From NCBI GenBank assembly GCA_038924245.1, contig JBCKVB010000004.1, positions 1 to 57,141 on the forward strand: DNA of 57,141 nt, in the 5' to 3' direction. Position 1 is the stretch's first letter. Every line of letters begins with the position of its first letter. The notes beneath the pieces were generated by a model, which saw nothing but the letters and a program-made list of their open reading frames with translations, was not told the DNA's origin and ran no database searches. This DNA is from Gammaproteobacteria bacterium. Its GTDB lineage: Bacteria; Pseudomonadota; Gammaproteobacteria; SURF-13. Of the stretch, positions 11,730 through 57,141 are shown piece after piece. A program made the position numbers and the translations under genes.

Positions 11730-11945
11730 GAGGCCTCCATTTTGGACAAAACCCAGCAACTCCCTGCCGTCCATCAATGTGTCAATCTACGCTTGGGTTT
11801 GAGGTAAGCGCCCGAACAAATGGGGGTACCTCAGACTCGACTTAACGAGGAAGAACGCCATTTAATCGAGTCTGACCCCTTTTGTTGCCTTTAATGAATT
11901 ACTTTACTAACAAACGTCGAAATCATTCGCAAGAAATAAAGTGAT

Positions 11946-12773
<828 letters not shown>

Positions 12774-38147: not shown

Positions 38148-38223
<76 letters not shown>

Positions 38224-38387
38224 TTTTTTAGTCCAGCAACATCCAGTACCGTCCGAAACCACTTGTTTTTCAAGCCTTTTCTGTACTTCTCGTGGCTCAT
38301 GCCGTCCAGTCTCATCCATTGACATACCGTCACTTTGACGGTATGTTTGACGGTATGTCAACCATGTTAAAAGGGACATACCGTCAA

Positions 38388-39599
38388 ATGGCACTTTCCG
38401 ATGCGGCAGTACGTAACAGCAAGGCGACCGACAAACCGCGCAAGCTGAGTGATGGGCGCGGGCTATATCTGTTGGTCACCAAAGCTGGCAAGTATTGGCG
38501 TTTCGACTATCGCCATGATGGCAGGCGCCGCACGTTGGCCGTTGGCGTGTATCCCGATGTAACGCTGGCACAAGCCCGCGAGCGACGCGATCAGGCGCGC
38601 GCGCTGTTGGCGGACGGCACAGACCCTAGCGCAGTGAAGCAGGCCCGCAAGGCGGCCACAGAGAACAGCTTCGAGGCGGTAGCACGCGAGTGGCACGCCA
38701 AGTTTTCACCGGGCTGGGTTCCACATCACGCCGACAAGATCATCAAACGCTTCGAGCGTGAAGTCTTTCCGTGGATCGGCAACCGGCCCATTGCCGGCAT
38801 CTCCGCCCCTGACCTGTTGGCGGTGCTGCGCCGCATTGAGGCCCGCAACGCACTCGACTCCGCGCACCGTGTGCATCAAAACTGCGGGAAGGTGTTCCGG
38901 TATGCCGTGGCCACCGGTCGCGCCCTACGCGACCCCTCCGGTGATCTGCGCGGTGCGATACCGCCCGCGGTCGAACGCCACCACCCCACCATCACCGAAC
39001 CCAAGCGCGTAGGTGAACTGTTGCGCGCCATTGCCGGGTATAGCGGCTCGTACATCACCCGGTATGCACTGCAACTGGCGCCGCTGGTCTTCGTGCGCCC
39101 CGGTGAACTGCGCAAGGCGGAGTGGTCGGAGTTCGATCTGGATAAGGCCGAGTGGCGCATACCGGCGCACAAGATGAAAATGAAGGCCGTTCACATCGTG
39201 CCACTGTCCATACAAGCCCTGGCCATCCTGGCCGAACTGCACGCGCTGACCGGCGACGGCAAATATGTTTTCCCAGGAGCACGTACCGATGACCGCCACA
39301 TGAGCGAGAACACCGTCAACGCGGGACTTCGTCGGCTTGGCTACGCGGTGGGCGACATGACCGGCCACGGCTTCCGCAGCATGGCGTCCACCCTGCTCAA
39401 CGAACAAGGCTGGAACCGAGACGCCATCGAACGGCAACTCGCACACGCGGAACGCGACGACATTCGCGCCGCCTACAACTACGCCGAACACCTACCGGAA
39501 CGCCGCAAGATGATGCAGGCGTGGGCGGACTATCTGGATAAGCTCAAGACTGGGGCGGTCGTGATACCGCTGCACAAAAAGGATAGCCTACAGAAGTAA
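38388..39599 (+). CDS. P4-like tyrosine integrase
   Basis: Arm domain (KLSDGRGLYL, GVYPDVTLAQAR), RPGELR, HGFR...H...Y. Confidence 0.96.
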   Translation: MALSDAAVRNSKATDKPRKLSDGRGLYLLVTKAGKYWRFDYRHDGRRRTLAVGVYPDVTLAQARERRDQARALLADGTDPSAVKQARKAATENSFEAVAREWHAKFSPGWVPHHADKIIKRFEREVFPWIGNRPIAGISAPDLLAVLRRIEARNALDSAHRVHQNCGKVFRYAVATGRALRDPSGDLRGAIPPAVERHHPTITEPKRVGELLRAIAGYSGSYITRYALQLAPLVFVRPGELRKAEWSEFDLDKAEWRIPAHKMKMKAVHIVPLSIQALAILAELHALTGDGKYVFPGARTDDRHMSENTVNAGLRRLGYAVGDMTGHGFRSMASTLLNEQGWNRDAIERQLAHAERDDIRAAYNYAEHLPERRKMMQAWADYLDKLKTGAVVIPLHKKDSLQK

Positions 39600-40510: not shown

Positions 40511-40520
40511 CGCTTTTTGC

Positions 40521-40549
40521 GCTGCGCATAATCCGGCGTTATGTTCCAT
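40521..40549 (+). other. dif-like Xer/tyrosine-recombinase site
   Basis: GCTGCGCATAA-TCCGGCG-TTATGTTCCAT vs E. coli dif GGTGCGCATAA-N6-TTATGTTAAAT. Confidence 0.55.
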
Positions 40550-41086
40550 TGCCGAATACCGAACATGGTTGGGCAGGTAGCACCGAACGGCGAACGAAGT
40601 CTGGAACATACGCGGGCGGGAAAGCGTAGCGCCGTGCGGGGACGCGGCAGGCTGAGCGAAGCTGAGCCTACCGCTGGACTCGCGCAAGCGGCAACGAAGG
40701 GGGCCATGCTTGCCGAAGCTGCTGAGGGCATTGCGGAGGTGGCGAAGGCCGTCACTTTGCCGTAGCCGCCGGAGCATTGCCCGGTGCGTCAGATTGGCAC
40801 TGCACTAGCCCGGCGCGATGTTTGCGCATTTGCTTTATGCAAGCAGCGTGACGGGGGGTAAGATGGGCTGTTACTAGTGGAATAGTGAGGAGGGGGGTGT
40901 TCTTGGTATTTTTTATTGGATCCGTAAGTTCTGAACTCATACACCTTTTGAAAATTCTCGCAATTCCTAAGTTCATAATTATTTTTTTCCAAAAAAAATA
41001 TTAGAAATTTCCCTATTCCGCGATTGAATTACTATGGAGCTCAGACTCCATTGATTTTGAGGGGCGACCGGGGGTCAAGATCAATT

Positions 41087-42037: not shown

Positions 42038-42403
42038 TCACTCATTCATTAAACGCAGAAACTGAGGATTTTTGATTATTATCTGTAGACTGCTTTTATA
42101 TTGAGTAATTTTCCCACGTGCGCATGCACGTCTATTTTCAAATACTTTAAGACTGCCAAATCTATCTAAAAAATCACTTTCTTGATCATTCCAAATGGTC
42201 ACGCTGATGTGCTGCTTCGGATATTTAGCACCGAAATTTAAATATGTTCCATTTTTGAAATCAGTAACTTCTTTTATTGAACCACAAACCATTACTGTTT
42301 CTCCCACATGAAAAGCAGCTTTGCTAGAGTCAATCGTGGATTCCGCAGAAATTGCCAAGCATGAAGCCCCCACCAATAAGAAGAAGAATGCTATTTTTCT
42401 CAT
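42038..42403 (-). CDS. Secreted small OB-fold-like protein
   Basis: Signal peptide MRKIAFFFLLVGA; HVGETVMVCG, YLNFGAKYP pattern. Confidence 0.6.
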   Translation of the reverse strand: MRKIAFFFLLVGASCLAISAESTIDSSKAAFHVGETVMVCGSIKEVTDFKNGTYLNFGAKYPKQHISVTIWNDQESDFLDRFGSLKVFENRRACARGKITQYKSSLQIIIKNPQFLRLMNE

Positions 42404-42404
42404 T

Positions 42405-43403
42405 TTAAACCTCGCGGATTGAAATTCGAAGTGCAAAAACCCATGTCGGTTTGGTGTAACGCACCGACTTCGTAAAGAATACCTCAAACGGCGTTCTGAA
42501 CCCCGGCACTTTTCTGGGGCGATGGTTCAGGCGGCGCACTGCTCGCGGCACCTGTTTCTCTGTCATGTCAGTCAACTCCATACTCTTGTGGATATACTGC
42601 ACCATGACCTTTGGGAGTAAAAACGTGCCGCCACCAAGGTAGCGCATATCCGGTAGAAAATCTATCCCTGTCCGTTGCACCAATTCCTTGTAGCCAATTG
42701 GCTTCCCTGCTCTGGCCTCATCTGTGTTGTCTAGCCAGTGCGCCCATGCACGGCGGCTAGAAGGGTCATAGACCAGCTTAAACAAGTGCTGTGGCACCCA
42801 GACCTTGCCAGCGCCGATTGTCGCTGGATTGGCAGCATACACCGGGCCGGTTATCACATACACATCACCCGCAGCACGCATTACATATTTGCGCGTGTCA
42901 TTCTCGATCTTTGCCCATGTCTTGCGGTTATTGATTGGAGCCTGTGGAACAATGTTGGCTAATGAGAAACTCTGTGCCATTGCCTCGTCAGTTCCCATGT
43001 CAGCAGCGGGCGCCATGTGTCCTCGGTCAAAGCCAGAACCCTTGTAATCATCAAGCGTTGCACGTTCTGCCCTGGGTAATCGTGCCTCTTCGTAGAAGTG
43101 GTCACCACGATCAATATCCTTTTCGATAATCGCTCTATTCAATCGTTCAGAGACGTAGATGGGGGTGCGACTTTTACCTGAGTGAAGTATTGCAAACGCC
43201 TCGAAGCATAGCGCCCTTGGCTGCATGTCTTGTTGGCGTTGAATTACCGGGGGCTTGCCATTCGCAAAGTGCTGTCGGCATTGGGCGAAATCATTCCCTT
43301 CCGCGTAGGCCATGTCGGCCACCGGAAGAAAAACAATAAATGCCAATACAACGATGGCAGCTTTGTTCAGGATTCTGCTAAGATCACATACCTTCATCAG
43401 CAA
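42405..43403 (-). CDS. DNA/RNA non-specific endonuclease (NucA/EndA family) with IS30-derived tail
   Basis: Signal peptide, DRGHMAPAAD, SFSLANIVPQ, NRKTW. Confidence 0.9.
   Translation of the reverse strand: MLMKVCDLSRILNKAAIVVLAFIVFLPVADMAYAEGNDFAQCRQHFANGKPPVIQRQQDMQPRALCFEAFAILHSGKSRTPIYVSERLNRAIIEKDIDRGDHFYEEARLPRAERATLDDYKGSGFDRGHMAPAADMGTDEAMAQSFSLANIVPQAPINNRKTWAKIENDTRKYVMRAAGDVYVITGPVYAANPATIGAGKVWVPQHLFKLVYDPSSRRAWAHWLDNTDEARAGKPIGYKELVQRTGIDFLPDMRYLGGGTFLLPKVMVQYIHKSMELTDMTEKQVPRAVRRLNHRPRKVPGFRTPFEVFFTKSVRYTKPTWVFALRISIREV
42417..42610 (-). mobile_element. IS30-family transposase 3' remnant
   Basis: QYIHKSMELTDMTEKQV...LNHRPRKVPGFRTPFEVF...FALRI. Confidence 0.75.
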
Positions 43404-43938: not shown

Positions 43939-46047
43939 TTACACCTTTCTGAACCCTTCATCCTCGCAAGCCTGCTTTATTTCCAGAAGCTTCCGCCAGT
44001 CTTTTTCCGTGTTTATTTTCATGAAACCGGAGAGGGTGCTGGCCCTGATTAGCAAATTGCGTTCTGGCGATGATATATAGTTTGAAGCTTTTGGCCACCT
44101 GAGTAATGCCTCAAAATATCCGCTAGTCGAAAGTTGTAGAATGGTTTTCTGAAGGGCGATTCCATCATCCAGCCCCCCCTGCTTCCGCCCATCTGACTTC
44201 ACTCTCCTGAAATCGTCCTTGCTTACCATCCACTGATCGAGCTTCTTGGATAATGTAATTGGGATCTGCTTAATTTTGTCCCAGCAGGGCTCTTTCTTCG
44301 ACCACTCTCCTACATTCGTCATGCCCGCAGGCGGGTTGAGAATGACATTCTGCACGGCAATTGCAAGATCCCTCATACAGTCTTCTATTGCACTTTCAAC
44401 ATCCTGTTTCATCCATATCTGATCGAGGTCGAATTCCATTTCTTTCAAGCGGAAAGAGTGGAAGAGCAACGACAGGGAATACGTAACAATCTGAGGTCTG
44501 TAATCCCCTCCGTACCAAGTTCCTCGTCCAGCAGATACGATTCTCTCCGTCCGTTTCCACAAAATAGCCACCGCAACGATCTGCTGGTAGTAGGCATCTC
44601 CGTAATTTGGGCTAATCGAGTTCCAGTATTCGCTTTCAGTCACCTCCGGTTTAGCGCTGGAAAACTGCGCCGCAAACTTGGCGAAGTTCTTTTGGGCAGC
44701 GAGACTCACCCAATGAGGTTTTTCGCGCCAAGTACTATCATATTTTGCAAGTTCGGTTTTGTTGATGACCTGATCACTCGGGTACTCCAGATCAAAGGCG
44801 TTTTTCTTCGATTCCGTAAGGTACAAGCGCTCGTTCTGAAACTGGCCACGAGCGCGCTCGTAAAACCATTTGCTCTGAATTCTTGTTCCAGCTCGTGCTG
44901 GCACCTGAAGGCGCCGTGAAATCTCCTCGATCTTTCGATGGAACTGGTGGTTCGCAAAGAAATCAGCCGCTGCGATCTTGTTCTGCGTATTTGCAAACTG
45001 GGCAATCCTAGGTATCAGATCATGAGCATCATCACGACTTACCTCCGTCAGCTTCACCTGAACGGATACTCCTTCCAGCGACAGACGATCCTTCTTGCGG
45101 GCATTGAGAATACTTGCGGTCGTCTGGCCCCCATTGACGATCTGTAGATCAACCAGGTCGGTGATAAGATTCCTGCCATCAACAATCTCGACGGTCACGC
45201 TTGAAGCTGTTGCAGCAATCCCGTTGTTGTAGGCAAAAAAAAGTGACGGAGCATCCTGTATGGTTGTACGAATACCCTTGTTAATTCCCCCCCTCATCCC
45301 AAGAAAGGAACGGACGTTACCCTCAAGCAGTCTGCTACCATAACGCTCGAAAAGATCTGCAAGCAATGCCCCCTCAATAACACACAGGAAGGATCTCAGC
45401 TTGTCCGTCCGAGCAGCTTCTATGCACGGAATACCATCTGAACCGAAGTCCGACAGCCTGATTTCTACAGTCTCGCGTTCACGGGAAGACTCATACATGG
45501 CCTTCAACCGCTGTAAATCCCAGACATGCCTCTCGATTGGAATTCCGGCGATATTTCCGCACAATTCCTCCTTGAATTTCTGACTCAGGAGCTGGTTCGA
45601 AAAGATGTGCATGCGGATACGGGACACCTTGGTGCCGAGTTCACGCAAAAGGCTCGCCAGTTCGTAGGCAGGATTCGCCTCGGTGATTCGTTCATTCAGC
45701 CCCCCCTCGACGGACTCAACAATAAAATTTTCCAGCCACCCGGAAAGTTGATTTACCGTTGCCGTTGTCAGAGTTTCCGGATCCTCCGTATCAGTCCATT
45801 TCCCAATGACCAGACCTATCGTCCCGTCAGATTCATCCAGTTCAGTGAACCCATGAATCCTAAGCTGCCTGCTTCTGGCGCCCGTTCCAGAATATTCCAC
45901 TTGAACAAATTCTCCGAACACGGGATCCTCTTCGAGACGCTCGGCAACCTCAGCCACAAAGGCCATTGTATCGACGAGATTCATCGAGGCAGCTCGCCTG
46001 ATGACGATTTGCCTAAGTTCTTCCATGAATGCCTTGTCATCCATCAT
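43939..46047 (-). CDS. AIPR family protein (MzaD-like)
   Basis: LLEGNVRSFLG, FFAYNNGI, QIVNGGQTTAS, ANTQN. Confidence 0.92.
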   Translation of the reverse strand: MMDDKAFMEELRQIVIRRAASMNLVDTMAFVAEVAERLEEDPVFGEFVQVEYSGTGARSRQLRIHGFTELDESDGTIGLVIGKWTDTEDPETLTTATVNQLSGWLENFIVESVEGGLNERITEANPAYELASLLRELGTKVSRIRMHIFSNQLLSQKFKEELCGNIAGIPIERHVWDLQRLKAMYESSRERETVEIRLSDFGSDGIPCIEAARTDKLRSFLCVIEGALLADLFERYGSRLLEGNVRSFLGMRGGINKGIRTTIQDAPSLFFAYNNGIAATASSVTVEIVDGRNLITDLVDLQIVNGGQTTASILNARKKDRLSLEGVSVQVKLTEVSRDDAHDLIPRIAQFANTQNKIAAADFFANHQFHRKIEEISRRLQVPARAGTRIQSKWFYERARGQFQNERLYLTESKKNAFDLEYPSDQVINKTELAKYDSTWREKPHWVSLAAQKNFAKFAAQFSSAKPEVTESEYWNSISPNYGDAYYQQIVAVAILWKRTERIVSAGRGTWYGGDYRPQIVTYSLSLLFHSFRLKEMEFDLDQIWMKQDVESAIEDCMRDLAIAVQNVILNPPAGMTNVGEWSKKEPCWDKIKQIPITLSKKLDQWMVSKDDFRRVKSDGRKQGGLDDGIALQKTILQLSTSGYFEALLRWPKASNYISSPERNLLIRASTLSGFMKINTEKDWRKLLEIKQACEDEGFRKV

Positions 46048-46048
46048 A

Positions 46049-47014
46049 TCAGTCTGTTAATTCCTTGTGTCCTTCAATGGATTCCAGCGAAATTGCATAA
46101 TTTGCACTGACTATCCCCTGAGAGACTGTGTCGGCCGAAATCTTCGGGAAAGCCTCGTCTACACTATAGGAATACTGTGCAACTGCTTCAAAGAGTATCG
46201 TGTCATAGAATTCGTGTTCGACATAGAATGCTTCAAGCAGACGATCATTAAACACCCTTAACGCCTCCGGGTTGGAAGCAATTGCCCCCTCGATTCTCGC
46301 CACTAGCGAATTTATGGTGACAGCCACCGCTTCTTCGGGTGTCGCCTCCCTGAGCACCATGACGACGAGACTCATCGGTACCGCACAATCAAGTTGTCCC
46401 AATGAAGAGATCGTTACGCAGTCCGCTCCAAGCCTTATGGCCTTCACTTCGATTGCGCTGTCTGAAAACAGGAAATCCTGATCAGCACCCAAGGGTCCTA
46501 CCCAGCCGACAACCGTTTCAAGGTAATCTCTCTTCCCGGATCCGATCAACGACTCCAGAACAAGTAGCTCTGCAATCAGTCCCTTGATCTGGTGAACCTG
46601 CAAAAGTCCGTTTCCTCCATCCTGAAAAAGCCTTTTCCACAGATTCAGCCGTTCCTTGAACAGAGCGATCAATGCCTCCTCTCCTGCAACATTACTTGAG
46701 GCATCAACCAGATCTTGGCAAAGGCGGCCGAATACAGCTTCAAGCCCTCTCTGCCTCAGTCTCAATACCATCAGCCATGACCCGTCTTGTCGCTGCTGTC
46801 TGAAATAGTCCAGCGAAGATGACTCCATGGCAATGTTCGGAGGCCTAACGTGAATGCCGATCGCAAGGAGCACGAAAGGTGAGGCATCAACACCTGCATA
46901 GATGTCGAAACGAGTCTCCGGATCTATCCTGGTCAGACGAAATCCATTTTCCTCTATCGGACGACTCCCAATCTGACGAAGTGATTCAGCCCAAAGCACC
47001 TCAATCTTCGTCAT
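46049..47014 (-). CDS. DUF4420 PD-(D/E)XK protein (MzaC-like)
   Basis: KGLIAEL, WVGPLGADQDF, AIEVKA. Confidence 0.88.
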   Translation of the reverse strand: MTKIEVLWAESLRQIGSRPIEENGFRLTRIDPETRFDIYAGVDASPFVLLAIGIHVRPPNIAMESSSLDYFRQQRQDGSWLMVLRLRQRGLEAVFGRLCQDLVDASSNVAGEEALIALFKERLNLWKRLFQDGGNGLLQVHQIKGLIAELLVLESLIGSGKRDYLETVVGWVGPLGADQDFLFSDSAIEVKAIRLGADCVTISSLGQLDCAVPMSLVVMVLREATPEEAVAVTINSLVARIEGAIASNPEALRVFNDRLLEAFYVEHEFYDTILFEAVAQYSYSVDEAFPKISADTVSQGIVSANYAISLESIEGHKELTD

Positions 47015-49745
47015 CGTCTTCCTGATCCGGGATCATTCCCATGGTGCGCAGTGCAACATTGTTGAACCGGTAAGGCACAGGGGCCGATTCTGTGTCGCCA
47101 AAATTTGGAAACGACAGGCTGACAGCCACCAGTGCCTTGGGTTCGATTTCGCTGGCCATCATCATGCGGCCTAAACGTTTGGCATCTTGCTTGGCATCTC
47201 GCTTTGGATTTGGTTTTGGATCACACGGCTCGATGACGTGAATGGTGAGCAAAGGTCTCTTCCGATATCGCCTGTAGACGTAACCTGGCACGGTACTGCC
47301 CTTTTCTGGATCTCGCTTTCTTTCTTCTTCCCACTCCAATTTTGCCGCTTCGATGTCTGGTTTCTCGATATCCACAGTCTCGTCGCCGATCTCGCCAACG
47401 CGCTGCTTGTTGAGTTTCAGGTAGTCCGCCCCCTTAGGAACTTTTTCAAATTGCCGTTGCCGCGCACGAATATTGCGGACGACACCATCCAAGCTTTTAA
47501 TGCTGAGATCTCGCAGCTCATCCCCGTCCCCTTGCGGCAAACAGATGTCCCATTCATCAAGCAATTTGACATCATTCCGCCCGATGAAGGAAAGAATAGG
47601 ACGCTCATTTCCCGATATGTCCAGCATAAACTCCATGTTCATGTTCGAAATCTCGAGCCTCCGAAGAAAGTCTGCCACTTCTGTTGCCTTAACGCCTCTC
47701 CAGTAACATCTGTTTCCGATCATATTTGCCGGGCCCCGACCAGAAAGGAACTGACTGACGTATGCCAAGTTTTTATTATTAGGCTCGACTTCCCTCGGAA
47801 GGAGCGCTGTTTCCGCACCACATTCGCTGAATGAGACCGCAACCTCGATTTGTTGCGAGTTTCTCATCTTGTTAAGCGCTGTGACGGTCAAGGCATTAGG
47901 GTGAGACCTGACACGCATTCCAAATTTGACGGGAGGTTGTTTGTTCGCATGCATTCTTCTAATGTCCAGACGCAGTTCACCAACTACGTCAGCAATATGA
48001 GCAAACCAGTCCTGCACGTCCGGATCCATCCATACCCTGCAAAGATCTTCATAGCCTGGACGATATCCAAACCAGCGCCCCATCTGAAGCAGGGTGTCAT
48101 ATGCTTTGGAATTCCGGAAGAAATAGCTGACACACAATCCTTCCAACGTCAGGCCGCGTGAAAGGGTTAGACCACCCACCGCAACGATACGCCTACCCTT
48201 TTCAGAGTTCTTGTAGAGTCCATAATTCAACCGGTCAGCCGCATCGCTCTTCTGGTTGATTGTCACGACCTTGACTGATGCAACCGAGTCGAACAAATTC
48301 CTTCTCACCTGATCCCAGCTGAATCCACACTCTGCATAGTGCTCTGCCCAGATTGCATACAGCCTAGAGAGGCGCGCATGACCGTCCCAGAGCTCATCGT
48401 CCGCCAGATATTGCTTTATGTCTTCCGTAAGGACGTAAAGGTAGCTCTTGATGACTGCTGCAAGCCGACCCTGCACATCCGTGAAGCGAGTAGCATTCAC
48501 CAGCATAGATCGATGCCTCATAGGCTCCTTCCTGAGATCACGAATCGCGCAAGATAGAAGGAAGGCACTCAAGGCTTCCTCCAACGAAGGTGGTAGCGTC
48601 GTAATGAGCAGATCCTTCTTGTGTTTGTCCGGGAAAACGCTGTCGGCATCGTTGATGTCGACCAGTTGGTACTGATGGCGCCCCGATTCGGAAAATATGC
48701 CAGATACACCAATGTAATTGGTTGGAGTGTTCAGGCAATAGACGAAATTCGACGGGAACAGATCATCGTTGTCCGGGTTGATAAAGACGTTTGCAAATGG
48801 GGTTGCCGTATAGGCAGCATAGGTCGACTTTCCAAAGCGGTTGAGAATCTCCCGTATAAGCTTGTTGATCTTCGCCGGATCCTCATCCTTTTTTGCATTG
48901 ACGGAAGCATTGTCAGCCTCGTCGTCAATCAGCAACAGAGGCAAGTCAATCTGATTGGCCCCCTTCCTCATCTGGGAATCAAGAAAGGCAATCAGGTTTG
49001 CAAGAGGCGAGTGATTTTTTTTCATCACGAGCAAGACCGGCTCGTTGATGTTTTCCAGTGGAATGCCTCCCAGCGCACGCTTGTTCGCCATCAGAAAATC
49101 AGAGTCGATCGATGTTAGGACATTTGGGATGGAAAGACGGAATCGCCCTGCGCCGATGACCGTTTTTTGGCGCTCATAATCGAGAAGGTCACGGCTATCC
49201 CGCCCGACAAAACCCTCGTCAAGCCGCTCCTGAGTCTGTGCCCGCAACACCTCAATCATGCCTGTAAGCAGGACAATAAACTTGTACCCAGCATCGGCTG
49301 CCTTGTTGATCAATCCGCAATAGCTCGCCGTTTTGCCGGACTGCACGTCACCCATGACTAGCCCTTTCACCTTCCATCCGTGAGTCAACTGCGGATTCCC
49401 GCACTCGTTCAGGATGTTGTCTGTATCTTCATCCAGGACACGAACGACTTCCCGCCCAAACCCGCTCGACTTGAGCTGGTTCACATAAGCATCCCAGTAG
49501 TTCCACTTGATTGTTGCCTTTACCTCCTCGAGCCACGGCTGCTGGTCGCCACCATGCAGCCCTTCCCCAGACATCATGCTAACGCCTATTGATGACTCAA
49601 GCTGTTTCCGAACCCTGTCGAGGGTGCCGGCATCAATTCCAGGGGTGATCTTCGATAGCATACCGATGACCTCATTAAGGAGTTCATCCGTCAACTCCTG
49701 TGTTCCGATGATTCCGACGGCAATCAGAAATGGGTCACTTTTCAT
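47001..49745 (-). CDS. Z1-domain SF2-helicase-like protein (MzaB-like)
   Basis: GDVQSGKT, IDDEADNAS, SRGLTLEGL, DTLLQMGRWFGYR. Confidence 0.92.
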   Translation of the reverse strand: MKSDPFLIAVGIIGTQELTDELLNEVIGMLSKITPGIDAGTLDRVRKQLESSIGVSMMSGEGLHGGDQQPWLEEVKATIKWNYWDAYVNQLKSSGFGREVVRVLDEDTDNILNECGNPQLTHGWKVKGLVMGDVQSGKTASYCGLINKAADAGYKFIVLLTGMIEVLRAQTQERLDEGFVGRDSRDLLDYERQKTVIGAGRFRLSIPNVLTSIDSDFLMANKRALGGIPLENINEPVLLVMKKNHSPLANLIAFLDSQMRKGANQIDLPLLLIDDEADNASVNAKKDEDPAKINKLIREILNRFGKSTYAAYTATPFANVFINPDNDDLFPSNFVYCLNTPTNYIGVSGIFSESGRHQYQLVDINDADSVFPDKHKKDLLITTLPPSLEEALSAFLLSCAIRDLRKEPMRHRSMLVNATRFTDVQGRLAAVIKSYLYVLTEDIKQYLADDELWDGHARLSRLYAIWAEHYAECGFSWDQVRRNLFDSVASVKVVTINQKSDAADRLNYGLYKNSEKGRRIVAVGGLTLSRGLTLEGLCVSYFFRNSKAYDTLLQMGRWFGYRPGYEDLCRVWMDPDVQDWFAHIADVVGELRLDIRRMHANKQPPVKFGMRVRSHPNALTVTALNKMRNSQQIEVAVSFSECGAETALLPREVEPNNKNLAYVSQFLSGRGPANMIGNRCYWRGVKATEVADFLRRLEISNMNMEFMLDISGNERPILSFIGRNDVKLLDEWDICLPQGDGDELRDLSIKSLDGVVRNIRARQRQFEKVPKGADYLKLNKQRVGEIGDETVDIEKPDIEAAKLEWEEERKRDPEKGSTVPGYVYRRYRKRPLLTIHVIEPCDPKPNPKRDAKQDAKRLGRMMMASEIEPKALVAVSLSFPNFGDTESAPVPYRFNNVALRTMGMIPDQEDDDED

Positions 49746-51211
49746 TTTGTTAGCTCCAAGCGTAGTTTTTCATGATGTTGCGGATGGCGAACGATGGGGT
49801 CGATGTTCAATACTTGATTAACACCAAGACCAGTTATCTCGAGAAGATTCGTTGCTATCTCAAGTAGCTCCGTGAATGTTTCCAATTCGTCTGCCCCTCT
49901 ATGATCTGAACACATGTCGGCGTAGATCGACTCAAACGGCAAAGTGTCTCCAAACATGCTCAACAACATCTGAAAATACCGTTGATTTTCCTCGCCGAAT
50001 TTAGACGAGAGTGACTGAATCACGGGGTGTTCCATGTTCAGCTCGTATCGGAATGAATCGCGCTTTGGCTCAATTCTTGACCAGAGTGGAACGAATCCAT
50101 TGTTCTTTTGCTTTCGTCCAGGATACGTCACCGTATTCCTGCTGGTGTTGGCAAAATGGGGAATGAGTTCCTTCAGTCGAGACCTGATCGATTCAGGCGG
50201 ATAAGCGACCGATTTCTTGATGTCCAAGGCCCACAGATCATCGAAGGAGTTTGGAATATCGACCTGTATTCTGGTCAGCTTGAAAAACTCATTCTTTGGC
50301 ACGAGCCTGAACCATGTGCCCCAGATAACAAGTCGACGATTGCGGTAGATGTAGAACCCCTGGGTTCCTCTAAGACCCTCCTTGCCCCCGGCCAGATTTA
50401 TTTCATCCAGAGACAGGTGACTGACAGGCGGCAGGATAAAAGGGCATACATTCACATTCCCTCTCTCATGCCTGATTACCTGCCCTTCTAAAGGCTGCCG
50501 GAAAGTGTTGTCTCTTAGAAAAGGGTCACGTGGAGGTATCTGCAATCCATTAGCTACGATCCTGATCGGACTGAATCCATCCTCCTTTTGCGTAAAGCGA
50601 TGAAAAACAAGGGCGAGGTGCTCGTACAGAGATGTCAGTTTCGTTGTCATTTCGGACTGAGGGTCGGCTGCACCAGCAGTGAGCCGATCAAGATCCTGCC
50701 AAACAACCAAGGTGCCAGAATCCAAACCTTGAAGGCGGGAAAACATGGGCAGGGATTCAAGATCCCTTTGTGCAGGGACGACCACCAGCCATCGTCCAGA
50801 CTCTAGTACGACATCGAGATCCCACCGCCTTGCACTGGTGACGCCCTCTTTCTTGCTCACTACTGTGAGCTTTCTACATTGGGACAAAGATGCCGTCTTC
50901 AAACCGAGGCCAAACCTGCCCAGATCTGAAACATCCCGTACATCGGTTGGATTACAGCTGCCATACCGCATGGCATTGGTCAACTCATTGGGAGCCATCC
51001 CCCAGCCGTTGTCCAGAATTGCAACAAAAGGATCTTCTGATGCGCCGTACTTAACTTCAATGCAATCTGCCGTTGCAGAGATACTGTTGTCAATTAAATC
51101 AGCAATTGCTGCCTCAGCTGTGTAGCCGACTGCTCGCATTGCCTCGATCAGGGAAATCGGATCAGGGATGACCTCCAATGTTTCCATTGCTTCCACGTTA
51201 GCCTCTAGCAT
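49742..51211 (-). CDS. MORC/MutL-type GHKL ATPase (MzaA-like)
   Basis: AIADLIDNSI, DNGWGM, GRFGLGLKTAS. Confidence 0.92.
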   Translation of the reverse strand: MLEANVEAMETLEVIPDPISLIEAMRAVGYTAEAAIADLIDNSISATADCIEVKYGASEDPFVAILDNGWGMAPNELTNAMRYGSCNPTDVRDVSDLGRFGLGLKTASLSQCRKLTVVSKKEGVTSARRWDLDVVLESGRWLVVVPAQRDLESLPMFSRLQGLDSGTLVVWQDLDRLTAGAADPQSEMTTKLTSLYEHLALVFHRFTQKEDGFSPIRIVANGLQIPPRDPFLRDNTFRQPLEGQVIRHERGNVNVCPFILPPVSHLSLDEINLAGGKEGLRGTQGFYIYRNRRLVIWGTWFRLVPKNEFFKLTRIQVDIPNSFDDLWALDIKKSVAYPPESIRSRLKELIPHFANTSRNTVTYPGRKQKNNGFVPLWSRIEPKRDSFRYELNMEHPVIQSLSSKFGEENQRYFQMLLSMFGDTLPFESIYADMCSDHRGADELETFTELLEIATNLLEITGLGVNQVLNIDPIVRHPQHHEKLRLELTK

Positions 51212-51280
51212 CCCTGTACTATCCTCCCTAACGGAATTTTCTTCAACATGACAAATTATCTATGCATATATAGGCCAACA

Positions 51281-51452
51281 CAGTAGTGTCCGGTTAATCT
51301 GAGACGAAGTTCGTGGAAAGCCTTTATTCATGCGGTTCTTCGACATTTTCAAGGTGATGCCGATTTTAGCTCACGCTTGAAATTCACGCCCAATTGAATT
51401 AGATGGTTGCGAGAAGAATCGGGCCTATTTTTTCGTCAACCGGACAGTAGTG
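51281..51452. mobile_element. 172-bp miniature element with IS4-type ends
   Basis: Ends CAGTAGTGTCCGGTTAA and TCAACCGGACAGTAGTG, same IR family as 19691-19945. Confidence 0.7.
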
Positions 51453-52785
51453 ATTCGCAATATGCTGTTACATCCACTAGATTTACATTCACATAGAGGC
51501 TATTCAGGCCTCTCAGCTTGACTCTGAACTGGCTACGCCTTTTTGTCGTCGGGCTGACATCGTTTATGCCCTCTAGCTTAATGCCGGGATCGTAGTACAC
51601 CATTTGTGACTCAATCGCTTTCAGCAAATACAAAGGGTCGGTGCCCTCACCTAGCCTTACTATATTTCCATAGGTATATTGGTTTTTCGGGTCTGTTCGG
51701 TGTTCGCTGGGAACATAAACTGCATTGCGGTGCTTGCGATTCCAGTGCTTCAGAATTCCGGTGAATGCCCAAAATGCAGCCAGCGTTCCATCATCAGATG
51801 ACATGGCTATCCCACCATCTGCATCAGTGATCTTCCCTGATAAACTGTCATACCCATGAAGCGTTATCGTCAGCCCCGTATTGGGATGTTTTTGGTTACA
51901 AAAATGGGCGCCACCGAAGTTCATTCTGTCAGCCCTGCCCAGACGATCCATGTACCCAAAGGTTCTTACGAACTCCTCCACACCTCGCTCAACGTAAAAA
52001 CCTCCGGTTGGCTCAGGGGTCATGAGGGTCAGCACATTGCTGCCATGCTGCTTCACTTCCCAGCCTTGGAAATCCGGCTCTGACCTTCCGTTTGGTGTAA
52101 TGCCCAACTCTGCTTCAAGAGTATACCCACCACACTGAGTGGCATTGCAGGGAAGAATGCTTCTCGTGGCATCAAGGCGCTTGGAGTTGATCCATCCCAG
52201 CCTGTGTATACGACATAACTCCGTAAGCAGAGCAGTTCGTGGATCACTTCCAACGCCCAGAAAAACCGAAGTAACAATCTCGGAGAAAATTTCTGTAGCT
52301 TTTACCAGCCCTGCGCTAATCCCCATAGCCTGTCGACAAACAGAACTCTCAGGCTCAAAAACAGAACCAATGATCCGCCCCTGATTATCTGTTCCTAGAA
52401 AGAGTATTCGACCAGGAATTCGGCTGTTCATGAGTGTTCGAGTTGAGTCTAGTCGAGACCTGTCACAGCCCCTGAGGAAACCTGAGAACCTGATTTCCGG
52501 ATACTGCGGATAGAGAATTATTTGTGCGGACGGTGCATTTACCAGCGAGGTGTCATCGCCAATCCAGCAGAAGTCGACCCCCGCCTTGAAAATTGGATTA
52601 TCCCCACTAGGGTCTGGATAAACGTCCCCAGTCGGAAAAAGCGTGAGAGCTTTGAAGCCTGGACCGAAGTAGACCTGATTCTTGGAGTTGTCGTTAGCCG
52701 CCAGGAATTTAATGTAAACCTTTTCTACGCGATGATCGGCGTAGTACTGAATCAGACTCTGAAGCGACTGAATGGAAGTGGACAA
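51436..52785 (-). CDS. MvaI/BcnI-family restriction endonuclease
   Basis: GYTLEAELGITPNGRSEPDFQGWEVK, LTLMTPEP; linked to vsr-dcm. Confidence 0.85.
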   Translation of the reverse strand: MSTSIQSLQSLIQYYADHRVEKVYIKFLAANDNSKNQVYFGPGFKALTLFPTGDVYPDPSGDNPIFKAGVDFCWIGDDTSLVNAPSAQIILYPQYPEIRFSGFLRGCDRSRLDSTRTLMNSRIPGRILFLGTDNQGRIIGSVFEPESSVCRQAMGISAGLVKATEIFSEIVTSVFLGVGSDPRTALLTELCRIHRLGWINSKRLDATRSILPCNATQCGGYTLEAELGITPNGRSEPDFQGWEVKQHGSNVLTLMTPEPTGGFYVERGVEEFVRTFGYMDRLGRADRMNFGGAHFCNQKHPNTGLTITLHGYDSLSGKITDADGGIAMSSDDGTLAAFWAFTGILKHWNRKHRNAVYVPSEHRTDPKNQYTYGNIVRLGEGTDPLYLLKAIESQMVYYDPGIKLEGINDVSPTTKRRSQFRVKLRGLNSLYVNVNLVDVTAYCESLLSG

Positions 52786-52830
52786 TTTGAACTCCTATTG
52801 GAAGCTTGACATGAATCACCTCAGCTACGA

Positions 52831-53250
52831 TCAGGTAGAGAGATTGCCTCTGATTTTGCCACACAGGCGGCTGATTAGCTTTGGATTGTCTTTTTCACAC
52901 TCCCATACAACAATACATTTCCAGCCCTGAGTCGCAAATGCCGCAAGAACTTTCCCATCGCGCTCAATGTTTCCCTGAAGTTTGTTTCTCCAGAAGTCCG
53001 TGTTGCTCTTGGGCATTACTGCATACTTGCAGCCTGGATGCTGATGCCAGAAGCAGCCATGGACGAAGATAGCTGTTCGATATTTTGGGAGAACAATGTC
53101 CGGCTTTCCCGGAAGGTCTTTGACGTGAAGTCGAAATCTAAAGCCCTTAGCATGTAGACCCTTCCGAACATGAAGTTCTGGCTTTGTGTTTTTGCTACGG
53201 ATACCGGACATCATCCGGCTACGCGTTGTCCGGTCAACGACATCAACCAT
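52831..53250 (-). CDS. vsr: Very-short-patch repair endonuclease
   Basis: RSRMMSGIRSKNTKPE, LPGKPDIV, FVHGCFWH, VWEC. Confidence 0.96.
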   Translation of the reverse strand: MVDVVDRTTRSRMMSGIRSKNTKPELHVRKGLHAKGFRFRLHVKDLPGKPDIVLPKYRTAIFVHGCFWHQHPGCKYAVMPKSNTDFWRNKLQGNIERDGKVLAAFATQGWKCIVVWECEKDNPKLISRLCGKIRGNLST

Positions 53251-53283
53251 CAGGCATCAAACTGTCCGAGAGCGGCAGTCTCC

Positions 53284-54561
53284 TTATGCATTTGCATAAC
53301 GAAGCGGTAACTCAGGCTCCAGGGTATCCGTTTCCAGCATAGGCTGCATCAACCTTGCAACATGAGACATAACATCAACAACAACAGAATTTCCAAATTG
53401 CTTGTAAGAGCGAGTATCCGAAACAGGGATTTTGAAATTATCCGGGAAGCCCATCAGTCGCGCGCATTCTCTGGGCGTCAATCTGCGCGGGCTTTTGCGC
53501 TTGCCTTGGTAGATAAGGATTTCCGAGCCGTCCTTGTAGTAGCGCGCTGAAAGCGTGCGGGCGGTATTTTCCGGGGTAACTAGGCCAAAGCCGAACCCGT
53601 TGCCCTTGGCGCGGTGCTTCGCGGCGTAATTCTGCAAGTAGAGCCAGAGGTGATCGGAGAGGGTGTATTTATTCTGCACACGCTGTTTTTTGTGGTCGAA
53701 GAATCTTCCTTCGTCCCATTCCAGAACAGGCTCTGAACCATCGGTGCGGTGCAAAATGTCCTTGAGCTTGCGCTTGTTCTTGGGTGGCAGGGGCAGGGCA
53801 TTGAAATCGAATGCAACCGGCTCGCGAAAACCGACGATGAGAATGCGTTCGCGGTGTTGTGGGACGAAGTGCGCACCGTCAATAATGCGCCAGTGAATGT
53901 GGTAACCCAACTCCTCGGTCAAGGTGCGGCGGATAACTTCGAAGGTGCGACCCTTGTCATGCGATTGCAGATTCTTCACATTTTCCAGCAGGAAAGCGCG
54001 TGGGCGCTTGGCTGCAATGATGCGTGCCACGTCGAAGAACAGCGTCCCTTGGGCTTCGCAGGCGAAGCCGTGCGCCTTGCCCAGCGCATTTTTCTTGGAC
54101 ACTCCGGCAATAGAAAAAGGTTGGCAGGGAAATCCGGCCAGCAATACGTCATGGTCGGGAATGTGGGCAGCATCTATCTGAGTGATGTCACCATGAATTG
54201 GATGGCCGTCGCGGAAATTTTCGGCATAGGTTTTCTGGGCATAGCTGTCCCACTCGCTGGTGAACACGCAACGCCCGCCGATGTTCTCGAACGCCTTGCG
54301 AATACCGCCGATGCCCGCAAACAGATCAATGAAATTGAAATTGCCCTCCTCGGTATTTTTCGTTCCGAACGGGAGCAGTTGCTGCAATGCGGGAACCAGA
54401 TAGGCGGGGGGCTGCGATTGCCTCACTTCCCATCGTCTGATGGTGCGGACGTTAATTCCCAAATGACGGGCAATTACAGCTTGTGTGTTGTGTTTACGTG
54501 CCTCGGCAAGGTAGGTAAATACAGCTTCCTGATCGTCGGCGGTGCTTAGGATGGTAATCAT
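53284..54561 (-). CDS. dcm: C5-cytosine DNA methyltransferase, Dcm/EcoRII/SsoII-like, with N-terminal HTH
   Basis: [35 protein letters not shown]; [22 protein letters not shown]. Confidence 0.93.
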
Positions 54562-54591
54562 GGGTGCTTTATTATCTGGGAGCTTTTGCGG

Positions 54592-54620
54592 ACAATATGG
54601 CATTTTATAGTCCCTGTCAA
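54592..54620 (-). promoter_or_regulatory. sigma70 promoter of the dcm operon
   Basis: TTGACA-N17-TATTGT, 30 nt before ATG 54561. Confidence 0.7.
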
Positions 54621-54986
54621 ATGACCAGGGCATATACCGCCCCCGCTGGCGTAGTCATCAGGAAATGCGAGAAATTGGACTGTCACCTTTTCTGCTGATC
54701 AGAGCCAAGGCTCCTCCCTCATTCCCATGCTTTTGCAGGAATCCTAACATTAAGGTAACCGTGAGCGTCTTTACGGGTGTAGTGCGCGGAATCGTCTTCG
54801 TAACAGAGACTCATAGGGTCAGACTCCATGGACACTCCCTTGATTACAAGGTATCGGAACTAGCTTAACAAGATTACCGTCCGCACCCGATGGTGCCCGG
54901 CAATGGTTACATTGTATCGGCGCTACTTGTAATGCGTTACATATGCGTTACAATATGTGGGTATCAGGTAGGTCCACGAGTGAAGC

Positions 54987-55181
54987 ATGCCCCCGACAAA
55001 AACCGCCACCTTAAATCTGCGCATTGACCCGATACTGAAGGGGGCGGCGCAAGGGGCCGCCCTGCGCGAACAGCGCAGTGTCGCCAACCTGATTGAGGTA
55101 CTGATTCGAAAGCATTGTGCGGAGGTGGGCATCCCCATCCCGGAACAGCGATCCTTATTCAGGGAGGACGATGATGAATGA
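54987..55181 (+). CDS. Ribbon-helix-helix (Arc/CopG-like) DNA-binding protein
   Basis: TATLNLRIDP beta strand, RSVANLIEVLI helix. Confidence 0.75.
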   Translation: MPPTKTATLNLRIDPILKGAAQGAALREQRSVANLIEVLIRKHCAEVGIPIPEQRSLFREDDDE

Positions 55182-55428
55182 GAAGACTCTGCGCGCCTTG
55201 GTGGATGCGGGCGCTGTACGGCGCATCCGCATCATCGCTAATGGCGCCCGTTTCCACATAGAGGCCGATACCCCGACGGGTTCCATTACGGCCTTCACCC
55301 TCAAGGGCACCGTCAAGACCTGGGGTTCACTGGATGCCGCCGCCAAGTGGGTGCGTTCACTCGGCATCGGCACGGCGCAGCTCGATGTGGCCAAGTGGCA
55401 GCCGGAACAGAAGGGCTTGAGACTGTAA
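55174..55428 (+). CDS. Small mobile-element protein resembling RK2 ParC-like family
   Basis: TLRALVDAGAVR...WGSLDAAAKWVRSLGI pattern; GGAGG SD; overlaps RHH stop. Confidence 0.55.
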   Translation: MNEKTLRALVDAGAVRRIRIIANGARFHIEADTPTGSITAFTLKGTVKTWGSLDAAAKWVRSLGIGTAQLDVAKWQPEQKGLRL

Positions 55429-55569
55429 TGATCCGGCGATCCATTGATGGCCCCGGCATGAAGTATACCGGGGGCCACATCCGTTTTCTCCGTATCCAGC
55501 CGGGCGCGCCCGGAGAGATAAATCTGGGGCACTGGGAATCAATAGTAACCCCGCCTTAACGTAGAACTA

Positions 55570-55689
55570 ACCGGCGGCGGCAACCGGGCTACCGCTCTGT
55601 CCTTGTAGGTTTGTCCGTATCGAGCCATTTCTGTTCTCCTTCGCCGCCCCCAGGTTCTTGGTTCTATTGAGGCGACAACTATTCTGACA
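55570..55689 (-). mobile_element. IS3-family left-end remnant
   Basis: TGTCAGAATAGTTGTCGCC end, AAGGAG SD, MARYGQTYKDRAVARLPP start at 55628. Confidence 0.6.
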
Positions 55690-55712
55690 CGGGGGGGTAT
55701 GACACGGGGGGA

Positions 55713-55742
55713 TTGACAAACTCATGCCTTGGGTAGTAGTCT
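55713..55742 (+). promoter_or_regulatory. sigma70 promoter feeding the riboswitch array
   Basis: TTGACA-N18-TAGTCT; predicted +1 near 55749, just before aptamer 1. Confidence 0.7.
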
Positions 55743-55750
55743 GTGTACGT

Positions 55751-55802
55751 AGCGCCGATTTGAGCTTCAGCTTGCGGGCGCTTTATAAATGCGGCTAAAG
55801 CG
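55751..55802 (+). ncRNA. SAM-II-type riboswitch aptamer 1
   Basis: P1 AGCGCC/GGCGCT, loop GATTTGA...TTGC, linker ATAAAT, 3' GCTAAAGCG. Confidence 0.8.
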
Positions 55803-55806
55803 GATC

Positions 55807-55843
55807 AAACCCGTTCTAGCGCGCAAGCCGGACCGGGTTTTTT
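55807..55843 (+). terminator. Intrinsic terminator after aptamer 1
   Basis: AAACCCG...CGGGTTT stem followed by T6. Confidence 0.7.
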
Positions 55844-55856
55844 GTTGTCTGTAGTG

Positions 55857-55909
55857 TCGCCGATTTAACGCACAACTTGCGGGGCGAATCATAAATACCG
55901 CTAAAGCGT
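55857..55909 (+). ncRNA. SAM-II-type riboswitch aptamer 2
   Basis: P1 TCGCC/GGCGA, GATTTAA, TTGCGG pairs with CCGC(T)AA, ACGC pairs with GCGT. Confidence 0.82.
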
Positions 55910-55971
55910 CGCTCGCTTCTCCTCCCCCTGGAAGCCGGCCACGCCGGAAACGCAGGGGAAAGGAGTTTCAC

Positions 55972-56259
55972 ATGTCAAAGCTTGAAGTTGGTGACATTTG
56001 TGTTACGCAAAACAATAGGATGAGTCTGCTCAACAACGGCCTGTTGGTAGAGATTATTGCGATCTGTTCGATCTCAGCTACCCCCTACCTAGTCCACCGC
56101 ATTGATGGGCACCGAGCCCCAGTGACGGAGCACCTTGGAGTTGTAAGTTTTTTCGCGTGTGACAATGCCTGGACGACAGCGCACCGGCTGCGCCGTGTTG
56201 ATCCCGGGGACACTCCCAGTTACGCGGAAGATGCTGAACGCTTGACCGAGCATGCCTGA
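55972..56259 (+). CDS. Small phage-like hypothetical protein ORF1
   Basis: AAGGAG SD; beta-rich N-terminus similar to ORF2. Confidence 0.75.
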
Positions 56260-56269
56260 TCGGAAGACC

Positions 56270-56423
56270 GGATGGGCATCGTCCACTTTTTGCTGATGTT
56301 GTTCAACGCCAGGTAAAACAGCTTGGTCACGGCTTCGTCGGTCGGAAACGAGGCGCGGGTTTTGATCACCTTGCGCAGACTCATGTTAATCGACTCGATG
56401 GCGTTGGTCGTATAGATTACCTT
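56270..56423 (-). mobile_element. IS256-family transposase internal fragment
   Basis: [40 protein letters not shown]. Confidence 0.85.
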
Positions 56424-56512
56424 AGTTAAACGTTTATGCGCGGTGAGGAAATAAACCGCGCAATGACATTGCAACGAGATGCACATGCATCGGAGTGGCC
56501 CACCTTACGGGC

Positions 56513-56571
56513 CGGGGGGATTTGATCCAGATTGCCGTCCCCGACGCATCGTCAAAACGGCTAAACAGGAG
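56513..56571 (+). ncRNA. SAM-II/SAM-V-type riboswitch aptamer 3 (translational)
   Basis: P1 CGGGGG/TCCCCG, GATTTGATCC, TTGCCG/CGGC(T)AA, TCC pairs with GGA of SD CAGGAG. Confidence 0.75.
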
Positions 56572-56578
56572 ACTAGCA

Positions 56579-56899
56579 ATGTCATTACTCAAACCTGGCA
56601 CACTCTGTGTCATCGTTGGTGGCTGCCCAGAAAATATTGGCCTCATCGTCGAAGTTCTTGCCCACCTCGGGCCACGCCCTCCCCGTGCTGACGCGTACAG
56701 CATACGAACCTCCAGTGGCCGGCCTTTTCCTCAGCTATGGGGCCTAGGCGGCCGCCTTGAACGCGGCTACACCAATGAGGCCATTACGGATCGGCACAAA
56801 CTTGCCCCCCTGGTTGATTCCAAGGATGAGTCCGAAGTGCGAAGCCGCGCCGTAAAGCGTGTGCCGGGCAGAAAGCGCGAACTGGAGACCTGCCACTAA
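56579..56899 (+). CDS. Small phage-like hypothetical protein ORF2 (paralogue of ORF1)
   Basis: MSLLKPGTLCVIVGGCPENIGLIVEV; SD AGGAG 7 nt upstream. Confidence 0.78.
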   Translation: MSLLKPGTLCVIVGGCPENIGLIVEVLAHLGPRPPRADAYSIRTSSGRPFPQLWGLGGRLERGYTNEAITDRHKLAPLVDSKDESEVRSRAVKRVPGRKRELETCH

Positions 56900-56982
56900 G
56901 TGACCCGGGGCAGCACCACCGGCCACTAACTTTTCAGAATATACGAATACGGCTTGATCCACCGCCCTCGCGGGGAACGGAT

Positions 56983-57039
56983 CGGGGGGATTTGATCCAG
57001 ATTGCCGCCCCGACACATCGTCAAACGGCTAAATAGGAG
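56983..57039 (+). ncRNA. SAM-II/SAM-V-type riboswitch aptamer 4 (translational)
   Basis: Near-copy of aptamer 3: CGGGG/CCCCG, TTGCCG/CGGC(T)AA, SD TAGGAG. Confidence 0.75.
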
Positions 57040-57045
57040 AACGAA

Positions 57046-57141
57046 ATGTCGTACACAAATGAAGAAGTAATTAGTGCACTTATCCCGCACCCCCGGGGGA
57101 TTCAGGCTCTTCGGGAGGCGCTGCGCATCCAGCCGGAGTAT
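57046..57141 (+). CDS. Hypothetical ORF3, truncated by window end
   Basis: MSYTNEEVISALIPHPRGIQALREALRIQPEY; SD 6 nt upstream. Confidence 0.65.
   Translation, partial: MSYTNEEVISALIPHPRGIQALREALRIQPEY

Follow-up and report, generated by a model that had tools for sequence, protein, structure and literature searches.

Riboswitches for S-adenosylmethionine (SAM) are textbook regulators of the genes for methionine and SAM biosynthesis. The closest described relatives of the elements reported here follow the tandem 'bi-mechanism' design of the SAM-II/SAM-V class, in which a copy that controls a terminator is followed by a copy that controls the Shine–Dalgarno (SD) sequence (Poiata et al. 2009; review PMC9481103). 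We analyzed a 57,141-nucleotide stretch of DNA from a Gammaproteobacteria bacterium (assembly GCA_038924245.1, contig JBCKVB010000004.1), which is the whole of contig C4 of a 1.38-Mb metagenome-assembled genome and which we call the window, and found four SAM-II/SAM-V-type aptamers on its plus strand at 55742-57049. Probably, although with ample room for doubt, this array is the front of a mobile low-SAM (SAM-homeostasis) regulon and not a dedicated sensor for the restriction–modification (RM)/Mza defense operon that lies next to it.

SAM-II- and SAM-V-type aptamers and the genes behind them

From the first aptamer to the contig end, the array contains the following aptamers and gated open reading frames (ORFs). 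R1 and R2 are our own models, the former built from four copies and used for the SAM-V-like type, the latter representing the SAM-II-like type.

55742-55820 (with hairpin to 55843), plus strand: aptamer 1, SAM-II-like; SAM_alpha 32.7 bits at 55742-55819, R2 77.7 bits
55846-55925, plus strand: aptamer 2, SAM-II-like; seen by eye, R2 62.8 bits, no Rfam match
55972..56259, plus strand: ORF A, 95 aa, behind aptamers 1 and 2; 7 homologues
56509-56582, plus strand: aptamer 3, SAM-V-like; R1 90.5 bits, SAM_V 21.4 bits at 56507-56574
56579..56899, plus strand: ORF B, 106 aa, behind aptamer 3; 358 homologues at E <= 0.01
56979-57049, plus strand: aptamer 4, SAM-V-like; R1 85.7 bits, SAM_V 33.3 bits at 56976-57042
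57046..57141, plus strand: ORF C, start of a TPR protein, behind aptamer 4; cut by the contig end and predicted to continue in TPR repeats at the start of contig C23

Our own models score the window aptamers at 63-90 bits, and R1 matched 24 copies in this genome and the relatives that we fetched. Across these 24 homologues, 96% of the alignment cells are paired, compared with 30-60% in slid controls, and compensatory changes occur in all three helices: the P1 hairpin is 90.7% paired, though it lies outside the search model; P2, formed by the P1 loop with the 3' tail, is 98.6% paired (CG/GC 11:9, GC/AU 14:7); and the P3 hairpin is 100% paired (AU/CG 10:10). Aptamers 1 and 2 are without P3, as in SAM-II. 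The motifs GAUUUGA, AUUGC and GCUAAA stand in aptamers 1, 3 and 4, and aptamer 2 reads GAUUUAA. Also kept are the nucleotides that carry the contacts to SAM in the crystal structure of SAM-V (PMC6061858): UUU in the third-strand U-run, UU in the 5' strand of P2 and U-A-A-A in CUAAA. Near-invariant among the homologues are also the UCC linker and the AGGAG 3' of CUAAA; the SD is able to pair with this linker (P2a), a SAM-V trait. The same SAM-V-like aptamer type precedes metK on contigs C23 and C33 of this genome and in the related loci L014, L061 and L062. Random GC-rich repeats, considered as a source of the aptamers, are contradicted by the covariation and by the metK context. One R2 match, at C3:642-739, lies within a TolC-like gene and was set aside as chance.

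At the gathering threshold, Rfam reports only two tRNAs in the window; the aptamers surface only under E-value thresholds, and all four stay below gathering (32.7 bits against 36; 33.3 and 21.4 against 41; aptamer 2 unreported). Such scores would suit a view in which nothing here senses SAM, the elements being decayed copies or aptamers for some other ligand, and so would the altered third strand of some homologues (CUUUAUU in L021, AGUUAAA in L029). We hold this to be very improbable, given that three metK genes (C23, C33 and L014) have this aptamer in front of them, that the contact nucleotides are conserved and the helices covary, that two other SAM classes, including SAM-I/IV at 71 bits, precede the ORF B family, and that one homologue, the SAM-II copy at L014:9117-9193, passes the Rfam gathering score (36.6 against 36). 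Their Rfam scores aside, the window aptamers are predicted members of the SAM-II/SAM-V class.

Their surroundings point to two kinds of expression platform. A promoter-like TTGACA, read from sequence only, lies 5' of aptamer 1 (55713-55718), and 3' of the same aptamer a terminator-like hairpin with a U-run (55807-55843) folds at -17.7 kcal/mol. After aptamer 2, a hairpin at 55919-55965 (-32.4 kcal/mol, z -2.83) pairs its CUCC with the GGAG of the ORF A SD, which is thereby buried. At aptamers 3 and 4, the AGGAG of the SD stands directly 3' of CUAAA, with the ATG 6-8 nt further on. As the sequence and covariation suggest, SAM binding would lock an H-type pseudoknot and triplex; following the model of the SAM-V crystal structure, the SAM-bound state would favor the terminator after aptamer 1 and occlude the SD at aptamers 2-4. 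Because the aptamers are, as far as their letters tell, SAM-II/V OFF switches, the gated genes would be made only when SAM is scarce, which agrees with an earlier, sequence-only reading of this DNA in which the switches turn on as SAM falls.

Elsewhere, the Rfam family Bp2_287, a Burkholderia candidate small RNA, gives sub-threshold matches antisense to SAM-II-like aptamers, at L014:9079-9205 (plus strand, 41.9 bits) and at window 55718-55842 (minus strand); what Bp2_287 describes may be a SAM-II leader in reverse complement. At C49:2322-2400 (minus strand), upstream of a twin-arginine translocation (Tat)-signal protein, aptamer 1 recurs in truncated form; the TTGACA promoter region is shared, and the copy breaks off after P1.

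ORF A and ORF B are distant paralogues (hhalign of ORF A against the ORF B family: 91%, E 1e-6), and tandem SAM-II aptamers stand 5' of ORF A in L062, L021 and L045 as well. The ORF B family, which has no Pfam domain, is very well conserved and is found in Rhodocyclales, Nitrosomonadaceae, Polynucleobacter and other Burkholderiales. Residues C10, C16 and H73 are invariant in it, and H29 almost so. Its members are found behind SAM-V-like aptamers (L014, L020, L021, L022 and L045), behind SAM-II-like aptamers (L019, L040, L046 and L053) and, in L028, behind a SAM-I/IV aptamer that scores 71 bits, above gathering; about half of the ORF B loci with upstream sequence carry an aptamer. That a single gene family has acquired aptamers of three classes argues strongly that expression at low SAM matters for the ORF B gene itself.

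The AlphaFold2 model of ORF B (predicted local distance difference test score, pLDDT, 81) is an SH3/KOW-like barrel, for which a fold search of the PDB returned generic SH3/KOW/CAP-Gly-like matches only, at E >= 0.01, and no functional match; a tblastn search with ORF B against sequenced plasmid and phage collections gave no match. PADLOC, PHROGs and Pfam held nothing informative for ORF A, ORF B, a 176-aa protein encoded on C23 or most of the genes downstream of aptamers. The sequence-only reading had offered the gated ORFs as backup abortive effectors, restriction-alleviation factors or element-mobility functions; neither these searches nor the generic fold give them the look of effectors, toxins or anti-restriction proteins.

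The mobile island and the metK copies of the genome

The array lies on mobile DNA, with a tRNA gene and an integrase toward its left end.

38148..38220, plus strand: tRNA-Asn (anticodon GUU), Rfam tRNA 69.1 bits; its 3' end serves the island as left attachment repeat
38292..39599, plus strand: tyrosine integrase of the island, with Arm-DNA-bind_3, Phage_int_M and Phage_integrase domains

The 18-nt repeat of the tRNA-Asn 3' end, GGTTCGAGTCCGTCCCGG, is found again on the same strand at C23:14931-14948, a match for which we estimate a chance expectation in the genome of ~4e-5. The window end, at the start of the TPR gene, matches TPR repeats at C23:6-258 at 86-92%. From this TPR overlap, the attachment repeat and the contiguous gene order of L061 and L062, we infer that C4 continues into C23. 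Given the tRNA-Asn beside the integrase, the second repeat and this continuation, the predicted island is ~34 kb long, integrated at tRNA-Asn, and runs from window 38199 to the contig end and on through C23:1-14948. Its GC content is 52-55%, compared with 59.7% for the genome.

On C23 the order is a partial aptamer, a TPR_12 protein, the 176-aa protein, a full aptamer (2549-2621) and MetK (399 aa), followed by AAA_5/MoxR, a 155-aa protein, a DUF2201_N/DUF2201 protein, a divergent MetK paralogue and a DUF2779 protein. The row of MoxR, small protein, DUF2201-type vWA protein and MetK-like protein (C23:4023-8366) thus sits behind an aptamer and metK, and the same MoxR/vWA/MetK-like row occurs in L014, L052, L028 and L061. 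The MetK-like paralogue on C23 is without the GAG of GAGDQG and without a loop segment; the divergent MetK copies have 66% and ~30% identity.

A further metK is found at C33:1387-3220 (minus strand), where a SAM-I/IV aptamer (58.5 bits, above gathering) with a terminator is followed by DUF3293, a SAM-V-like aptamer and metK. Parts of L014 match this DUF3293-metK block at 91-95% identity, and there ORF B is inserted after DUF3293 and ahead of metK. We considered the C33 locus as part of the core and rejected this, as same-genus genomes are without its riboswitches. The third full-length metK, on C9 and followed by a 468-aa ORF, has no SAM riboswitch match, and we take it to be the presumed housekeeping copy. 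Its lack of a SAM riboswitch fits published work in which no known methionine regulator controls metK in beta-proteobacteria (PMC4239095).

Of 19 other genomes of the same family or order (the order-level sample is the same 20 genomes as the family), a single one carries R1, R2 or SAM-I/IV aptamers, and of 41 class-level genomes none does. This rarity in the lineage, together with the riboswitch-less metK on C9, argues that the SAM-sensing regulon was imported with mobile DNA.

Related arrays recur on other betaproteobacterial islands. L062, a single contig, has the RHH pair described below, tandem SAM-II, ORF A, SAM-V, ORF B, SAM-V, a Sel1 protein, SAM-V and MetK in that order; L061, likewise a single contig, keeps the same order and runs on through MoxR, a vWA protein, a MetK-like protein and DUF2779. 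The genes behind such aptamers elsewhere include a RadC-like JAB protein, DUF3293, HD_4, several ORFans and MetK. MetK-like, MoxR or DUF3293 neighbors stand at 7 of the 12 aptamer-bearing loci and at none of the aptamer-less loci (L019-L048); DUF3293, which in L061 is fused to an M20 peptidase, tops the Pfam neighbor tally. The consistent partners of the arrays are MetK, the MetK-like gene and DUF3293. L048 and the window show no nucleotide relationship.

In L062 (GCA_038923925.1), the first ~28 residues of the Sel1-repeat protein behind a SAM-V aptamer (11045-12070) match the MetK N-terminus (PF00438 positions 3-24). In the window, positions 56425-56572, around aptamer 3, are 85% identical to the metK leader of C23. 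Both observations suggest 'leader capture', by which metK leaders and first codons would have been copied in front of other genes.

As we picture it, the island would carry five full and one partial SAM-II/SAM-V OFF riboswitch, each gating its own gene: ORF A, ORF B, the TPR protein, a second TPR protein and a second metK with the MoxR AAA+/small protein/DUF2201-vWA/MetK-like operon. This set would restore or protect the SAM supply, in which the MetK-like protein, with its MoxR/vWA helper, might serve by analogy with CbbQ/CbbO-type activases, and the SH3-like ORF A and ORF B proteins might be accessory factors. Methionine or sulfur starvation could trigger the regulon, as could a phage attack on the SAM pool.

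The second of these triggers would be the whole purpose if the array were a general anti-phage SAM alarm untied to restriction, with the riboswitch-gated MetK copies of the island and the MoxR/vWA/MetK-like row rebuilding SAM after a SAM lyase or MetK inhibitor and ORF A and ORF B neutralizing phage proteins. Arrays on integrative elements do lie beside Mza, LlaJI-type RM, Qat, OLD+UvrD, DndB/TGT, EcoO109I and MmeI-type RM systems (Qat, OLD+UvrD and DndB/TGT being methylase-independent), the several divergent MetK copies would fit, and the riboswitches are accessory, outside the core regulation of the lineage. We nonetheless regard it as a rather unlikely account: apart from a trivial P-loop match, PADLOC returned nothing for MoxR, DUF2201, MetK-like, ORF A or ORF B, the ORF B family is absent from the phage and plasmid collections searched, and the DUF3293-M20 peptidase fusion points to metabolism.

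Within the array lies a transposase remnant, and between the defense operon and the array lie two small genes.

54987..55181, plus strand: RHH-like protein, weak RHH_5 match
55174..55428, plus strand: 84-aa protein, overlapping the RHH-like gene
56220..56486, minus strand: C-terminal fragment of an IS256/Mutator-family transposase (PF00872 4.9e-10, profile positions 319-377 of 379)

The RHH-like and 84-aa pair (window 54901-55439) is a repeated module, with ~95% identical copies at C23:22109-22646 and L014:18816-19353, and it also borders the arrays in L061 and L062; it may be the border of a cargo slot, or a small regulatory or toxin–antitoxin-like pair. Between the integrase and the Mza operon, three items lie on the minus strand at 39878-40777, 41087-41983 and 42038-43403: a UmuC C-terminal fragment (IMS_C, DUF4113), a DUF559/MTES_1575-like nuclease and a non-specific Endonuclease_NS gene. 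The last is overlapped by a 149-aa ORF that could encode its inhibitor.

The neighboring defense operon

On the minus strand, a tight operon runs from 54633 to 43939.

53284..54633, minus strand: Dcm-type C5 cytosine DNA methyltransferase, operon head (PF00145 1.8e-85; PADLOC MTase_II 1.9e-155)
52831..53250, minus strand: Vsr very-short-patch repair endonuclease (PF03852 9.2e-32)
51436..52785, minus strand: MvaI/BcnI-family restriction nuclease (PF15515 9e-41 over residues 188-431)
49742..51211, minus strand: MzaB, HATPase_c_3 (MutL-like ATPase; PF13589 1.7e-31; PADLOC MzaB 7.1e-79)
47001..49745, minus strand: MzaC, Z1-domain protein (PF10593 6e-73; PADLOC MzaC 1.4e-111)
46049..47014, minus strand: MzaD, DUF4420, PD-(D/E)XK-like (PF14390 4.7e-52; PADLOC MzaD 5.7e-25)
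43939..46047, minus strand: MzaE, AIPR protein (PF10592 1.5e-90, AIPR_N; PADLOC MzaE 8.6e-64)

The sequence-only reading had described a Dcm-type methyltransferase heading a restriction/Mza-like operon, and Pfam and PADLOC agree on it; it had also placed the riboswitch array near and divergent to that gene, and aptamer 1 indeed starts 1.1 kb from the Dcm start codon, divergent to it, with the two small genes above, unrelated to either, in between. The best 25 of 59 PADLOC family matches of the methylase are to MTase_II, DrmMII and DruM models, none to MzaA. The MvaI/BcnI-family nuclease has ~180 extra N-terminal residues, where no domain matches. Dcm-type C5 methylation is not known to block MvaI itself.

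From this arrangement came the proposal that the array is a SAM-depletion sensor guarding the adjacent RM/Mza operon, with the ORFs as backup abortive effectors or restriction-alleviation factors after attack by a phage SAM lyase. The parts that held up are the OFF logic, with an aptamer controlling an SD or a terminator, and the presence of a SAM-repressed gene set in mobile DNA beside methylase-based defense; the functional tie to RM/Mza did not. A lack of co-occurrence between array and methylation-based defense had been set beforehand as a refuting result, and on this test the idea of a riboswitch guarding a restriction system fails. In one motif scan applied equally to both sets of loci, candidate DNA methylases lie within ~10 kb at 4 of 16 aptamer-bearing loci (260 kb) and at 3 of 16 aptamer-less ORF B loci (203 kb), which is no enrichment. 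The Pfam-annotated neighborhoods of L014, L051, L053 and L063 hold no DNA methylase within 10 kb. Of 12 genomes with an array, one alone, that of Polynucleobacter bastaniensis, has the Z1 domain, the hallmark of Mza. There, an MzaB-C-D-E operon (L060:1863-9111; G066 C6), with a second MzaB-like gene beside it, lies near an array that consists of the SAM-V aptamer/ORF B/DUF3293 module; the 20 kb fetched around the operon and array hold no Dcm-like gene. In the syntenic sister Polynucleobacter hallstattensis, the array is the same and a Z1 gene is missing.

L062 points the other way. Among the syntenic relatives that have a left flank it is the closest, and its slot beside the array is filled by a LlaJI-type system with two C5 methylases. 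Since window and L062 carry two different C5-methylase systems in this position, the slot looks like a variable defense hotspot and the operon like shared island cargo. It is because of the L062 system that we leave the guard proposal a small probability; its ORFs are without a toxin or defense signature and the strongest partners of the arrays are MetK and DUF3293, and altogether we consider it improbable.

The reading of a mobile low-SAM regulon has its own points to answer. In both the window and L062, the array has a C5-methylase restriction system immediately divergent to it, MzaBCDE lies 9 kb from the array of P. bastaniensis, and several other arrays adjoin defense genes, so that the array may yet have some role in defense. 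The methylase scan rests on motifs, not profiles; the window aptamers score under Rfam gathering; the C4-to-C23 join is one that we infer, not an assembled junction; and the term 'SAM homeostasis' derives solely from the MetK, MetK-like and DUF3293 partners. All of these weigh against it. We nevertheless prefer the low-SAM regulon, with the Dcm-Vsr-MvaI-MzaBCDE operon as separate cargo in a variable defense slot and its methylase at most an indirect beneficiary of the SAM supply of the island.

Comparison with known systems

The operon resembles the Mza candidate defense system (MzaA-E in PADLOC-DB) in that MzaB-E stand in one operon behind a DNA methylase. It differs in that an MvaI/BcnI-family nuclease and Vsr separate the methylase from MzaB, and in the PADLOC matches of the methylase, of which the best 25 of 59 families are generic models (MTase_II, DrmMII) and not MzaA.

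The SAM lyase of phage T3 is an anti-restriction and anti-BREX factor. It is mentioned in this role in PMC11580459 and supplies the logic by which a fall in SAM could signal infection and disable methylase-dependent defense, whereas its link to the window locus and its relatives is conceptual only. Taken furthest, this logic would make the island a mobile SAM-depletion alarm regulon beside a variable defense slot, in which a phage SAM lyase or MetK inhibitor calls up spare, inhibitor-resistant SAM synthetases, a MoxR/vWA 'reactivase' and the SH3-like proteins, so that methylase-dependent defense and self-protection keep working. We think this scenario unlikely.

MoxR AAA+/vWA activase pairs are known to sit beside their client enzyme, as CbbQ/CbbO do for Rubisco and as seen for NorQ/NorD. 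The MoxR and DUF2201 vWA genes of C23 likewise adjoin a MetK paralogue, behind an aptamer-gated metK; by this analogy, the difference would be that the presumed client is a MetK-like enzyme. Literature searches, which covered MoxR/vWA with a SAM synthetase, SAM riboswitches on mobile elements, DUF3293 and SAM lyase with a riboswitch, turned up no earlier account of the cassette or the arrays in the library searched.

The riboswitch classes themselves are known. What is new, as far as the library searched shows, is where they stand: in dense rows on mobile islands, one switch to a gene, in front of non-metabolic small proteins and spare MetK copies. It is unusual that integrative elements have time and again taken up SAM riboswitches, of three classes, to control cargo genes outside metabolism, that four to six switches stand in one dense array with spare MetK copies, and that the host lineage otherwise makes no use of SAM riboswitches. 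Mobile elements can thus bring their own metabolite-sensing regulon, and the arrays offer an entry point to the conserved ORF B small-protein family and to the MoxR/vWA/MetK-like cassette.

The nearest precedent remains the bi-mechanism SAM-II/SAM-V design. The window shares its GAUUUGA/AUUGC/GCUAAA core, its order of a SAM-II terminator copy first and then a translational copy with the SD beside CUAAA, and the P3 hairpin in the SAM-V-like copies. It departs from that design in its scores, which are under the Rfam cut-offs, and in its host, a betaproteobacteria-like lineage rather than marine Alphaproteobacteria or Bacteroidetes. Most of the genes gated here are also not methionine or SAM enzymes (SH3-like and TPR/Sel1 proteins, with RadC and HD_4 in relatives), and the design itself is drawn out on a mobile island into a row of five full switches and one partial switch, one for each cistron.

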